Notes: generated by a model from the letters alone, not told the origin. A stretch of 64,000 nucleotides of DNA from Escherichia coli (GCF_003334785.1 NZ_QOWV01000013.1); one strand, 5' to 3'. Shown: positions 11,628 through 16,344, counted from the stretch's first letter. Translations and numbers: made by a program.

Positions 11628-12074
11628 ATGGCAGCTCTTACTGCAAGCTGTATTGACCTGAATATTCAGGGCAATGGCGCTTATTCCGTTCTGAAGCAGT
11701 TGGCGACAATAGCGTTACAAAACGGTTTTATCACCGACTCACACCAGTTCCTGCAAACCCTGCTGCTGCGCGAAAAAATGCACTCTACTGGATTTGGTTC
11801 CGGTGTCGCCGTGCCGCACGGTAAAAGCGCCTGCGTTAAACAACCGTTCGTATTATTCGCCCGCAAAGCGCAGGCTATTGACTGGAAAGCCAGCGATGGC
11901 GAAGACGTCAATTGCTGGATCTGCCTCGGCGTGCCGCAAAGCGGCGAAGAGGATCAGGTCAAAATCATCGGCACACTGTGTCGCAAAATTATTCACAAGG
12001 AATTTATTCATCAACTGCAACAGGGCGATACCGACCAGGTGCTTGCCTTGTTAAATCAAACCCTCAGCTCATAA
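11628..12074 (+). CDS. frvA: PTS fructose-like EIIA component
   Basis: 148-aa ORF; position and size match recalled FrvA. Confidence 0.88.
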   Translation: MAALTASCIDLNIQGNGAYSVLKQLATIALQNGFITDSHQFLQTLLLREKMHSTGFGSGVAVPHGKSACVKQPFVLFARKAQAIDWKASDGEDVNCWICLGVPQSGEEDQVKIIGTLCRKIIHKEFIHQLQQGDTDQVLALLNQTLSS

Positions 12075-12084
12075 GGAAGTGGCG

Positions 12085-13536: not shown

Positions 13537-14596
13537 GTTACTGCAACAGTTGTGCGAAGCCAGCGCCGTCAGCGGCGATGAACAGGAAGTTCGCGACATT
13601 CTGATAAACACGCTGGAACCTTGCGTGAATGAAATCACCTTCGATGGTCTGGGCAGCTTTGTTGCCCGTAAGGGGAATAAAGGTCCAAAAGTTGCCGTTG
13701 TCGGACATATGGATGAAGTCGGCTTTATGGTCACCCACATCGACGAGAGCGGTTTTCTGCGTTTTACCACCATTGGCGGCTGGTGGAATCAGTCGATGCT
13801 CAACCACCGGGTAACCATACGCACACACAAGGGAGTGAAAATCCCTGGTGTGATTGGTTCCGTCGCGCCTCATGCGTTAACGGAAAAGCAAAAGCAACAA
13901 CCGCTGTCATTTGATGAGATGTTCATTGATATTGGCGCGAACAGTCGCGAAGAGGTGGAAAAGCGCGGCGTGGAAATTGGTAATTTTATTAGCCCGGAAG
14001 CCAATTTTGCCTGCTGGGGCGAAGATAAAGTGGTCGGCAAGGCGTTGGATAACCGCATCGGCTGCGCAATGATGGCTGAACTATTGCAGACGGTGAATAA
14101 TCCCGAAATTACGCTGTATGGCGTTGGCAGTGTGGAAGAAGAAGTTGGGCTACGCGGGGCGCAAACCTCGGCGGAACACATTAAACCGGACGTCGTGATC
14201 GTGTTGGATACCGCCGTAGCGGGCGATGTTCCGGGCATTGATAACATTAAATACCCGCTGAAACTGGGCCAGGGGCCGGGGCTGATGCTGTTTGACAAGC
14301 GCTACTTCCCCAACCAGAAACTGGTAGCAGCGTTAAAAAGCTGTGCCGCACATAACGATTTACCGCTGCAATTTTCCACCATGAAAACCGGTGCGACGGA
14401 TGGCGGGCGCTACAACGTGATGGGCGGCGGGCGTCCGGTTGTCGCGCTGTGTCTGCCAACTCGTTATCTGCACGCCAACAGCGGTATGATTTCAAAAGCC
14501 GATTACGAAGCTCTGCTCACGCTGATACGGGGTTTTCTGACGACCTTAACTGCGGAGAAAGTCAACGCGTTTAGCCAGTTCCGTCAGGTGGATTAA
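13526..14596 (+). CDS. frvX: M42-family peptidase-like protein FrvX
   Basis: Track ORF 13520..14596; start at MNIELLQQLCEASAVSGDEQEVR. Confidence 0.88.
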   Translation: MNIELLQQLCEASAVSGDEQEVRDILINTLEPCVNEITFDGLGSFVARKGNKGPKVAVVGHMDEVGFMVTHIDESGFLRFTTIGGWWNQSMLNHRVTIRTHKGVKIPGVIGSVAPHALTEKQKQQPLSFDEMFIDIGANSREEVEKRGVEIGNFISPEANFACWGEDKVVGKALDNRIGCAMMAELLQTVNNPEITLYGVGSVEEEVGLRGAQTSAEHIKPDVVIVLDTAVAGDVPGIDNIKYPLKLGQGPGLMLFDKRYFPNQKLVAALKSCAAHNDLPLQFSTMKTGATDGGRYNVMGGGRPVVALCLPTRYLHANSGMISKADYEALLTLIRGFLTTLTAEKVNAFSQFRQVD

Positions 14597-16344
14597 TGCT
14601 AAACGAACGCCAGTTAAAGATTGTCGATCTGCTGGAGCAACAGCCGCGCACGCCTGGCGAGCTGGCGCAACAGACTGGCGTTTCAGGCAGGACCATCCTG
14701 CGTGATATTGACTATCTCAACTTCACCCTTAACGGCAAAGCCCGCATTTTCGCCAGTGGCAGTGCGGGCTATCAGCTGGAAATCTTCGAGCGCCGCAGCT
14801 TTTTTCAGTTGCTGCAAAAGCACGATAACGACGATCGGCTGCTGGCGCTGTTATTACTGAATACTTTCACTCCCCGTGCGCAACTCGCCTCGGCGCTTAA
14901 TTTGCCAGAAACGTGGGTAGCAGAGCGTCTGCCCCGGTTAAAACAGCGTTATGAACGCACTTGTTGCCTGGCCAGCCGCCCTGGTTTGGGCCATTTCATT
15001 GATGAGACAGAAGAGAAACGCGTTATCTTGCTGGCGAACTTGCTGCGCAAAGATCCGTTTTTAATTCCGCTGGCGGGCATAACACGAGACAACCTTCAGC
15101 ATTTATCCACGGCCTGCGACAACCAACACCGCTGGCCGCTCATGCAGGGTGATTATCTCTCCAGCCTGATTCTGGCGATTTACGCCCTGCGTAATCAACT
15201 GACCGATGAGTGGCCGCAATATCCCGGTGACGAGATAAAACAAATCGTTGAACATAGCGGTCTGTTTCTTGGTGATAACGCTGTAAGAACCCTGACGGGT
15301 TTGATAGAGAAACAGCATCAGCAAGCGCAGGTAATTTCAGCCGATAATGTGCAGGGGTTGCTGCAAAGGGTGCCGGGCATCGCGTCATTGAATATTATTG
15401 ATGCGCAGCTGGTTGAGAATATTACCGGGCATTTATTACGTTGCCTTGCCGCACCAGTGTGGATTGCTGAGCACCGCCAGAGCAGCATGAATAACCTGAA
15501 AGCCGCCTGGCCTGCGGCCTTTGATATGAGTCTGCACTTTATTACGCTACTGCGTGAACAGCTCGATATTCCCCTTTTCGACAGCGATCTGATCGGTTTG
15601 TATTTTGCCTGTGCGCTGGAGCGGCATCAAAACGAACGCCAGCCGATCATTTTGCTCTCGGACCAGAACGCGATTGCCACTATTAATCAGCTCGCCATTG
15701 AGCGCGATGTTTTAAATTGTCGGGTAATTATTGCCCGTAGCTTAAGCGAACTTGTTGCCATTCGCGAAGAGATTGAGCCGTTATTGATCATTAACAACAG
15801 CCATTATTTACTGGATGACGCGGTAAATAATTACATCACCGTAAAAAATATCATTACGGCTGCCGGTATCGAACAAATAAAACATTTTCTGGCGACGGCA
15901 TTTATTCGCCAACAGCCGGAGCGTTTTTTCTCTGCCCCCGGAAGTTTTCATTATTCGAATGTACGCGGTGAAAGCTGGCAACATATTACCCGGCAAATTT
16001 GTGCGCAATTAGTCGCACAACACCATATTACCGCCGATGAAGCACAACGCATCATCGCCCGCGAAGGCGAAGGTGAAAACCTGATTGTTAATCGCCTCGC
16101 CATCCCACATTGCTGGAGCGAACAGGAGCGACGTTTTCGTGGATTTTTTATTACCCTCGCCCAACCAGTTGAGGTGAATAACGAAGTCATTAACCATGTC
16201 TTGATCGCCTGCGCCGCCGCCGATGCGCGTCATGAGCTAAAAATATTTAGCTATCTGGCAAGCATATTGTGTCAGCATCCGGCGGAGATTATTGCCGGGT
16301 TAACAGGATATGAGGCATTTATGGAGTTACTTCACAAGGGGTGA
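14596..16344 (+). CDS. frvR: frv operon transcriptional regulator
   Basis: 582-aa ORF; start overlaps frvX stop by 1 nt (TAATG). Confidence 0.88.
   Translation: MLNERQLKIVDLLEQQPRTPGELAQQTGVSGRTILRDIDYLNFTLNGKARIFASGSAGYQLEIFERRSFFQLLQKHDNDDRLLALLLLNTFTPRAQLASALNLPETWVAERLPRLKQRYERTCCLASRPGLGHFIDETEEKRVILLANLLRKDPFLIPLAGITRDNLQHLSTACDNQHRWPLMQGDYLSSLILAIYALRNQLTDEWPQYPGDEIKQIVEHSGLFLGDNAVRTLTGLIEKQHQQAQVISADNVQGLLQRVPGIASLNIIDAQLVENITGHLLRCLAAPVWIAEHRQSSMNNLKAAWPAAFDMSLHFITLLREQLDIPLFDSDLIGLYFACALERHQNERQPIILLSDQNAIATINQLAIERDVLNCRVIIARSLSELVAIREEIEPLLIINNSHYLLDDAVNNYITVKNIITAAGIEQIKHFLATAFIRQQPERFFSAPGSFHYSNVRGESWQHITRQICAQLVAQHHITADEAQRIIAREGEGENLIVNRLAIPHCWSEQERRFRGFFITLAQPVEVNNEVINHVLIACAAADARHELKIFSYLASILCQHPAEIIAGLTGYEAFMELLHKG

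Follow-up and report, generated by a model that had tools for sequence, protein, structure and literature searches.

The stretch of DNA analysed here, 64,000 nucleotides (nt) of Escherichia coli (GCF_003334785.1, NZ_QOWV01000013.1) given on one strand and hereafter called the window, carries at positions 11628–16344 four intact, tightly packed open reading frames (ORFs) on the plus strand, which are frvA, frvB, frvX and frvR. The locus is the known, named frvABXR operon of E. coli, present in every RefSeq annotation of the species: 5.1 kb aligned at 100% identity (megablast) to annotated E. coli chromosomes bearing these four gene labels, and the flanks are rhaA-rhaD-rhaM upstream and, on the opposite strand, yiiG and fdhD downstream. 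The frv genes have been named and annotated for decades, and our analysis leaves the identity of the locus unchanged; it is one of several orphan operons of the phosphotransferase system (PTS) in the best-studied bacterium. The analysis does add a predicted operator with its promoter, a class for the regulator with two candidate target histidines (H279 and H505), a map of the polymorphism of the locus and a narrowed hypothesis about the substrate. With a confidence only a little above even, we read frvABXR from comparative sequence evidence as an inducible PTS module of the fructose family, with an FrvR-activated promoter and a substrate of the sugar–amino acid or sugar–peptide type.

Genes and proteins of the operon

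Gene identity was defined by the NCBIfam equivalog models with their curated cut-offs (NF007389, NF008493, NF007367 and NF007366), and all four proteins scored far above them, FrvR with 1050 bits against 426 and the other three as listed in Table 1. The model alignments also corrected two starts, those of frvB and frvX, to the ATG codons at 12085 and 13526, where the mechanical ORF list had a GTG at 12079 and a TTG at 13520. Read directly, the frvA stop (12072–12074) and the frvB start are separated by a gap of 10 nt with an AGGAAG Shine-Dalgarno sequence inside; the frvX start lies 11 nt within frvB, whose stop codon occupies 13534–13536; and the frvX TAA (14594–14596) and the frvR ATG (14596–14598) overlap by a single nucleotide (TAATG). 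An earlier note, made from the sequence of the window alone, had described a complete operon with tight junctions and this 1-nt overlap of frvX and frvR, and the ORFs, the equivalog models and the junctions themselves confirm it.

The same note had pointed to intact coding capacity, which is borne out by the pattern of selection and by the conserved residues of three of the proteins. Ratios of nonsynonymous to synonymous substitution rates (dN/dS; Nei–Gojobori method), computed for the window against three divergent Escherichia loci and six other genera, were 0.05–0.16 for FrvA, 0.00–0.07 for FrvB, 0.05–0.12 for FrvX and 0.05–0.18 for FrvR, in the same range as those of the flanking rhaM and fdhD (0.01–0.10). 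All four frv genes are under purifying selection, and the FrvA histidine, the FrvB cysteine and the FrvX motifs are kept.

Judged by their domain models, FrvA and FrvB belong to a fructose-family PTS and retain its phospho-acceptor His and Cys. FrvA scored 146.6 bits against TIGR00848 (cut-off 103.5), and its active-site His motif (V/I)PH(G/A), here GVAVPHGK, is conserved in all seven aligned orthologs, from E. coli to Firmicutes. For FrvB, the scores were 102.7 against TIGR00829 (cut-off 76.85) and 196 against TIGR01427 (cut-off 157.55), and the N-terminal NCPAGIAHT, which contains the phosphorylatable Cys, does not vary from E. coli to Listeria. The protein reaches 271 bits against the FruA model, and its nearest characterised relatives include MngA, a PTS for a glycoside with an acid aglycone. 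Our literature searches found no published frv substrate, and many of the matches to "FrvA" concern an unrelated P-type ATPase of Listeria; in a slip of this kind, one study explains E. coli frvA through the Fe(II)-efflux ATPase FrvA of Listeria (PMC9205054).

FrvX matches Peptidase_M42 (PF05343) over residues 43–333 with an E-value of 1.9e-102 and aligns over its full length with solved TET aminopeptidases (E-values from 1e-87 to 1e-34). All five ligand motifs of M42 are kept, the Glu-Glu pair among them: HMDE, DNR, EEVGLRGA, LD(T) and YLH align with those of PhTET2 (1Y0R), YsdC (1VHE), 5DS0 and 9QR6, and from established knowledge of TET structures we take HMDE, DNR, EEVGLRGA, LD and YLH to be the metal-ligand and catalytic motifs. 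The earlier note had found an M42-family protein inside a PTS operon unusual, which for E. coli is not the case. All three M42 paralogs of K-12 lie in PTS operons, namely frvX itself, ypdE in fryA-ypdE-ypdF-fryC-fryB and sgcX in sgcXBCQAER, and YpdE and SgcX are 35% and 29% identical to FrvX. In the literature that we searched, no explanation for this recurrent association was found; YpdE is cited as characterised and, according to unpublished data, is dodecameric (PMC3511314).

Promoter, predicted operator and regulator

For phylogenetic footprinting, the 200 nt upstream of frvA were aligned for about 35 loci, and three sharply conserved blocks stand out in the enterobacterial loci, always 130, 87 and 37 nt away from the frvA start codon. 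The one of most interest, in the middle, is an inverted repeat of the form TGTCA-N9/10-(T)GACATAT, found at its 87 nt in all enterobacterial loci aligned. A repeat of the form TGTCA(C)-N7-9-(G)TGACA also precedes the frv-like operons in two Listeria, one of them Listeria weihenstephanensis, in Granulicatella and in the low-GC locus L054, with near matches in Hafnia and one further locus, and the distance from the end of the repeat to the start of a −10-like hexamer is exactly 32 nt in 43 of 43 sites. The pattern matches once in the 64 kb of the window and, in the fetched loci, almost solely at this position. Since repeat and −10 keep this geometry from E. coli to Listeria and Granulicatella, we regard the repeat as the probable operator of FrvR at a promoter that depends on an activator.

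The distal block, TGTG-N8-CACA at its fixed distance of about 130 nt in the roughly 35 enterobacterial loci, is a putative site for the cAMP receptor protein (CRP) in enterics. The copy in the window has CGCA as its right half and agrees with the consensus TGTGA-N6-TCACA at 7 of 10 positions; in other genera the agreement is 7–9, mostly 8. The element is absent upstream of the Gram-positive frv-like operons examined, and a literature search found no link of CRP to frv. The proximal block is the predicted −10 hexamer. At the −35 position, where enterics conserve a CTCA(T/G)C motif, the match to the consensus is poor, and the predicted operator abuts it; transcription would start near 11603. A scan for the sigma-70 consensus returned no promoter in the spacer upstream of frvA, and only the footprint brought the predicted one to light. 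The Rfam scan of 10900–17600 at E ≤ 1 returned two sub-threshold chance matches only, and we therefore see no leader or riboswitch in this region.

By its modelled fold, FrvR is a diverged member of the class of PTS-controlled activators that contain PTS regulation domains (PRDs), with a build like that of MtlR, LicR, ManR and Mga. This class is rare in Enterobacteriaceae. Pfam alone recognises only HTH_11, a helix-turn-helix (HTH) domain at residues 5–60 (E-value 8e-10), and a C-terminal PTS_EIIA_2, and a search against the sequences of the PDB gave no match at E ≤ 1. The structure prediction is confident: it places a second helical or winged unit at 66–135 and an EIIB-like fold farther on (strand 349–354, helix 358–371; flavodoxin-like matches), the fold matches are MgaSpn, AtxA, a BglG-family PRD and EIIA, and MgaSpn, AtxA and 3SQN can be superposed on roughly the first 470 residues. 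An exhaustive phmmer search of 1.84 billion representatives recovered only 195 relatives of FrvR. In an alignment of 44 of them, 18–75% identical, seven residues are invariant, including H279 in the PRD-like region, joined by R282 in 36 of the 44 members, and H505, the invariant His of the EIIA-like domain, with P504 before it. Some members of the family carry Pfam PRD, Mga and PTS_IIB domains, the Mga HTH being found in 9–17 of the 44. The listing of FrvR as a characterised AraC-family factor in a review's table of transcription factors (PMC4797297) is contradicted by these domain data.

The spacer between rhaM and frvA is exactly 300 nt long (11328–11627) and has a GC content of 33%, against 50.6% for the whole window. 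It had been taken by the earlier note for a single AT-rich promoter region, a description that does not hold: more than half of it is lineage-specific filler. Conservation in other strains and genera is limited to the proximal ~135 nt; the homology of the two E. coli locus types starts directly upstream of the TGTG-N8-CACA block, and the conserved promoter module is therefore these ~135 nt only. The distal segment, specific to the K-12 type of the locus, stands in place of about 1.78 kb of the O157:H7-type locus and is present in 2826–2839 of 5426 complete genomes. It comes in two sequence classes, at least 99% identical in 2137 genomes and 80–90% identical in 690. In O157:H7 and many other strains, a divergent gene for a "carbohydrate porin" of 464 amino acids (aa) lies between rhaM and frvA (L001:2262-3656; also L003, L004 and L011). 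No NCBIfam family model matches the protein, and its gene is 86% identical in DNA sequence to the porin gene that ends a raf cluster; the porin is therefore RafY-like. A rough estimate from match counts places the gene in about a quarter of complete E. coli genomes. The K-12-type segment is filler left by the rearrangement that removed this gene. We rejected the idea that the porin is a dedicated component of the frv system: in Citrobacter and Kluyvera an HTH-cupin gene and azlCD come between frvA and the porin gene, which stays beside rhaM, and sequence type 131 (ST131) keeps the porin without frv.

At the other end of the operon, a palindrome resembling repetitive extragenic palindromic (REP) elements folds as RNA with −22.7 kcal/mol (z = −4.35). 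It has no T-run, and a scan for intrinsic terminators found none after frvR; the palindrome may act as a bidirectional terminator or as a stabiliser of the mRNA. In several E. coli lineages (L002, L003 and L004 were compared), the convergent yiiG (DUF3829, window 16394–17449) is cut short or carries a pseudogene annotation, and a small YdgH/BhsA-like gene occupies the frvR–fdhD interval in most other genera.

Table 1. Position of the frv genes and of the features around them, in window coordinates
Feature	Position	Strand	Remarks
K-12-type spacer segment, 167 nt	11329..11495		no counterpart in the O157:H7 locus
CRP-like site TGTGCATTACTCCGCA (TGTG-N8-CGCA)	11498..11513	+	centre ~−97.5 from the inferred transcription start
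Inverted repeat TGTCAttgtttaccGACAtat, predicted FrvR operator	11541..11561	+	centre ~−53.5
−35 position, TCATCA	11568..11573	+	poor match to TTGACA; 17 nt upstream of the conserved −10
Predicted −10 hexamer, TACAAT	11591..11596	+	TAnnnT 37 nt from the ATG and 32 nt past the repeat in every locus
Shine-Dalgarno sequence of frvA, GGAGT	11616..11620	+	GGAG 7 nt before the ATG in all aligned loci
frvA: PTS EIIA, fructose/mannitol type, 148 aa	11628..12074	+	NF007389, 289.9 bits (cut-off 151)
frvB: fused PTS EIIB-EIIC, fructose family, 483 aa	12085..13536	+	NF008493, 1034 bits (cut-off 806)
frvX: homolog of M42-family (TET-type) metallo-aminopeptidases, 356 aa	13526..14596	+	NF007367, 843.5 bits (cut-off 569)
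frvR: 582-aa regulator with HTH, winged-helix, diverged PRD-like, EIIB-like and EIIA(Mtl/Fru)-like domains	14596..16344	+	
REP-like palindrome, perfect 12+12, GTGTCGGATGCG C CGCATCCGACAC	16348..16372		between convergent frvR and yiiG; direct reading

Conservation, loss and the class of the substrate

The FrvR orthologs recovered by a word-indexed search were all enterobacterial, and a scan of one genome per species yielded 33 loci, every one of them with the order frvA-frvB-frvX-frvR and nearly all flanked by the rha/azlCD side and by fdhD. The four genes have been inherited together, in one order and at one chromosomal site, across no fewer than 12 genera of enterobacteria: Escherichia, Citrobacter, Klebsiella, Kluyvera, Salmonella (houtenae and diarizonae), Superficieibacter, Trabulsiella, Enterobacter, Lelliottia, Huaxiibacter, Buttiauxella and Atlantibacter.

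For the substrate, the more distant relatives are the most informative, in a sample of six FrvR-family members at 25–40% identity and thus of six loci only. Hafnia alvei (L049) has the order EIIA-EIIBC-M42-FrvR; Listeria weihenstephanensis (L050) and Listeria spp. (L052) have EIIA-EIIBC-M42-PatB-FrvR; L051 and the low-GC locus L054 have EIIA-EIIBC-PatB-FrvR; and in Granulicatella balaenopterae (L053) the order is EIIA-EIIBC-FrvR-PatB followed by a PepT-like M20 peptidase. A gene for a C-S lyase of the PatB/MalY family is found in five of the six, twice beside M42, twice without a peptidase gene and once beside the PepT-like peptidase. Two of these genes were scanned and exceeded the TIGR04350 cut-off (367 and 387 bits against 340), and the five proteins, 44–64% identical to one another, all keep the SASKT motif with the lysine for pyridoxal phosphate (PLP). 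The lyase of the Listeria operon is 43% identical over its full length to E. coli MalY, the gene of which directly follows the PTS gene malX, and the Listeria EIIBC passes the equivalog cut-off of FrvB (890 against 806). Among the enterobacterial frv loci of the sample, that of Superficieibacter sp. 1612_C1 is the sole one with a PatB-family gene, convergent with frvR and immediately downstream of it (L035:11774-12922; 395.7 bits, cut-off 340). A literature search found no link between PatB and the PTS.

Across the same distant loci, the permease stands out by its conservation: FrvB of E. coli is 60–77% identical to the proteins of Listeria, Granulicatella, L051 and L054, compared with 60–63% for FrvX, 34–39% for FrvA and 25–35% for FrvR. 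For a membrane permease this is remarkable, and it would point either to unusually strong constraint or to a more complex history of transfer. As to the substrate, a sugar PTS is paired with a peptidase, a lyase or both, and the M42 gene can be replaced by one from another peptidase family; peptidase chemistry therefore appears to be part of the pathway. The hint in the earlier note at a non-sugar or glycopeptide substrate is strengthened by this comparison. As the most parsimonious reading we tentatively suggest a sugar linked to an amino acid or a short peptide, with beta-lyase cleavage at the beta-carbon of Cys or Ser where PatB is present, and would not rate this specific form of the proposal as probable.

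A simpler possibility is that frv is a plain PTS for a ketohexose, "fructose-like" as its annotation says, the catabolism being left to enzymes encoded elsewhere or to a divergent operon for a PfkA-like kinase and an aldolase, and FrvX being a general aminopeptidase that rides along. The 271 bits that FrvB reaches with the FruA model, and EIIB and EIIC domain models of the fructose type that pass their cut-offs, agree with this, as does the lack of a lyase or glycosidase in the operons of enterobacteria. In its favour is also a second operon that faces frvA in about 10 loci, among them Klebsiella, Superficieibacter and the most divergent one, Buttiauxella (L010:587-5554; also L006, L015, L023, L029, L036 and L038), with remnants in S. 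houtenae (L009). It encodes a PfkA-like kinase scoring below the PfkA cut-off, ascorbate-type EIIB, EIIC and EIIA, a class II ketose-bisphosphate aldolase, and two small proteins, of 89 aa and of 184 aa with a P-loop, for which NCBIfam has no family. In Buttiauxella, three loci (L036, L037 and L039) have 1.7–5.7 kb of extra DNA between this operon and frvA. A functional link of the two operons is possible. Their co-regulation through a shared FrvR box is unsupported, however: the spacer between them holds no second copy of the box on the neighbour's side and only extra CRP-like sites, near-consensus ones lying about 130 nt upstream of the neighbour's first gene. The neighbour is also absent from most loci and from every E. 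coli locus seen. Nor does a plain ketose route account for a peptidase or C-S lyase kept in the operon from Enterobacterales to Listeria, Granulicatella and the low-GC loci, where the identity of the regulator has fallen to 25–35%, or for purifying selection as strong on FrvX as on FrvA. We consider the ketohexose explanation unlikely, while giving it more weight than the two that follow.

The history of the operon within E. coli could suggest instead that it is an evolutionary remnant there, left without catabolic partner enzymes, under weak or past selection and without a current role in K-12-like strains. The losses are indeed frequent. No match to the locus was found in 1179 of 5426 complete E. 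coli genomes (~22%); in ST131, described as lacking the frv cluster in a pangenome study (PMC9205054), a clean deletion takes frvABXR and the 5′ part of yiiG and spares the porin gene; one strain has a deletion associated with the insertion sequence IS1 and another an IS4-like insertion in the locus; and a frvB nonsense and a frvR frameshift allele were found. One further candidate, a cluster of truncated FrvR proteins (P0031), was set aside as partly an artefact of a contig end and not a proven truncation. Porin gene and upstream DNA are missing from the K-12 type, and both of its promoter sites are off the inter-genus consensus. Against this, the dN/dS within E. coli alone is 0.00–0.14 across all four genes, the same as for rhaM and fdhD; the promoter module is retained exactly to the breakpoint of the rearrangement; 80% or more of the locus is present in 4185 genomes, frv-plus complete genomes numbering 4247; and proteomics has picked up FrvA in K-12 grown in LB medium (PMC9508795). 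A remnant is, in our judgement, improbable; the operon is nevertheless dispensable in E. coli. The detection of FrvA means that the operon is not wholly silent and, along with a change of frvR in a transcriptome (PMC10967497), argues against the complete silence of cryptic operons such as bgl, asc and chb. The reading of the earlier note is supported in part, and the conditional expression that it proposed is plausible, given the poor −35, the conserved inverted repeat and the CRP-like site.

Finally, we think it very improbable that the system is mainly sensory or regulatory, the phosphorylation state of FrvB controlling FrvR and FrvX and PatB serving as trigger enzymes or protein-binding regulators in the way MalY does for MalT: the conservation of FrvB next to a diverging FrvA and FrvR, the fact that MalY, with 43% identity to the lyase of the operon, is annotated as regulating MalT negatively, and the lack of a dedicated sugar-phosphate enzyme in the E. 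coli operon would suit it, but FrvB has a complete EIIC permease domain scoring above the cut-off, FrvX and the lyases keep their metal-ligand and SASKT PLP-lysine motifs, and the replacement of M42 by a PepT-like M20 peptidase in Granulicatella argues that enzymatic activity is what is selected.

Proposed mechanism and comparison with known systems

As we propose it, the module would work as follows, on a substrate that is probably a sugar with an amino-acid or short-peptide part rather than a plain hexose. Transcription would proceed from a sigma-70 promoter with a good −10 and a poor −35 and depend on FrvR at the inverted repeat, with cAMP-CRP bound farther upstream helping in enterics. The phosphorylation control of MtlR, LicR and ManR is established knowledge and, by analogy, HPr~P would phosphorylate H279 and render FrvR active when preferred PTS sugars are absent, and phosphorylation of H505 by FrvA~P or FrvB~P would keep the regulator off as long as the substrate does not draw phosphate away from the FrvA/FrvB chain. 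FrvAB would then import the conjugate and phosphorylate its sugar, and the FrvX aminopeptidase would trim it; in the Gram-positive operons, a PLP-dependent beta-lyase of the PatB/MalY type would cleave the remaining beta-substituted Cys or Ser. E. coli has the transporter, the peptidase and the regulator only, about half of its strains having also lost the neighbouring porin gene, and this may be the reason why no growth substrate has been found in K-12.

Several observations weigh against this scheme. In the regulator, the position of the EIIB-domain Cys is taken by Ser355, a Cys being found there in only 5 of the 44 family members; there is no Pfam PRD match in FrvR, and the PRD region has only one invariant His. 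At the promoter, a centre at about −97.5 is not a canonical class I position for CRP, the start of transcription to which it refers being itself a predicted one, and both sites of the window deviate in their right halves, with CGCA for CACA and CGACA for TGACA; the K-12-type promoter may therefore be weaker. As to the substrate, the enterobacterial operons are without the lyase, the Firmicutes pathway could not run from this operon alone, and gene neighbourhood does not prove a shared pathway; MalY, moreover, is known to act also as a regulator, and the divergent neighbour in about 10 loci would suit a plain ketose route. The proposed regulation and the class of substrate rest wholly on comparative inference.

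Taken across phyla, the same material would allow a bolder interpretation, which we advance with clear reservation and think rather doubtful: that, together with its Gram-positive relatives, frvABXR makes up a PTS pathway for sugar–amino acid or sugar–peptide conjugates that spans phyla and has so far escaped notice. In it, the unusually conserved FrvB would bring in the sugar and phosphorylate it, an aminopeptidase, M42 or PepT-like, would shorten the peptide, a beta-lyase of the PatB/MalY type would set the sugar phosphate free, and a dedicated diverged PRD-type activator would control the operon at a conserved TGTCA-N9-TGACA box. The conjugates may then be, for example, S- or O-glycosyl Cys or Ser or cysteinyl-aminosugar compounds. 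If true, the conjugate idea would explain the M42 peptidases of the frv, fry/ypd and sgc operons as well as the place of MalY in a PTS operon, and it would add a class of nutrients of interest for enterobacteria that live in the gut or in association with plants. That the operon is often lost, ST131 being one example, bears on niche adaptation. The comparison also suggests better experimental hosts: E. coli strains that have the porin, Klebsiella or Buttiauxella strains that have the neighbour operon, and Listeria weihenstephanensis, which has the lyase.

The RefSeq annotation of frvABXR, made by PGAP, agrees with the window in genes, order and coordinates, and its terms are "fructose-like" and "putative regulatory protein" only; the operator, promoter, regulator class and substrate are not given there. 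For the regulator, the closest models are the PRD activators of Firmicutes, MtlR, LicR and ManR of Bacillus subtilis, and Mga and AtxA (5WAY, 4R6I and 3SQN), which share with FrvR the order of an HTH, a winged helix and PRD-like, EIIB-like and EIIA(Mtl/Fru)-like domains. As in MtlR, LicR and ManR, the EIIA His is invariant in FrvR, a His-x-x-Arg motif is conserved in the PRD region and the predicted operator is an inverted repeat that abuts a weak −35. Unlike MtlR and ManR, FrvR has a Ser for the EIIB-domain Cys, and where typical PRD activators have up to four conserved His in the PRD region it has one; FrvR itself also lacks a Pfam PRD or PTS_IIB match, and its family, with 195 relatives, is very small.

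For the peptidase, the TET/M42 enzymes PhTET2, B. subtilis YsdC and E. coli YpdE are full-length homologs of FrvX that share its metal-ligand motifs. They are seen as general cytosolic machines for the degradation of peptides, whereas FrvX is embedded in a PTS operon and co-inherited with it. The fry/ypd and sgc operons resemble frv as orphan PTS operons with an M42 paralog. They differ in their other components: fry/ypd has the multiphosphoryl protein FryA and an extra aminopeptidase, YpdF, and no adjacent regulator, and sgc has a Gat/Asc-type EIIC (SgcC), the DeoR-type SgcR, an extra epimerase (SgcE) and SgcQ.

For the pairing of a permease with a lyase, malX-malY shows the same arrangement as the Gram-positive frv operons, with a gene for a PTS permease followed by one for a PLP-dependent lyase of the PatB/MalY family. 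It differs in that MalX belongs to the glucose/maltose family of the PTS, that no peptidase is present and that the regulator, MalI, is of the LacI type; the frv operon of the window, for its part, has no lyase. A further parallel is the staphylococcal thioalcohol pathway, in which a peptide transporter, a dipeptidase and a PatB C-S lyase are reported to act on Cys-Gly-S-conjugates (PMC7385124, PMC11742315). There the transporter is not a PTS and no sugar is involved, and the likeness is one of logic only, from the uptake of a conjugate through its trimming by a metallopeptidase to beta-lyase cleavage at the beta-carbon of Cys.

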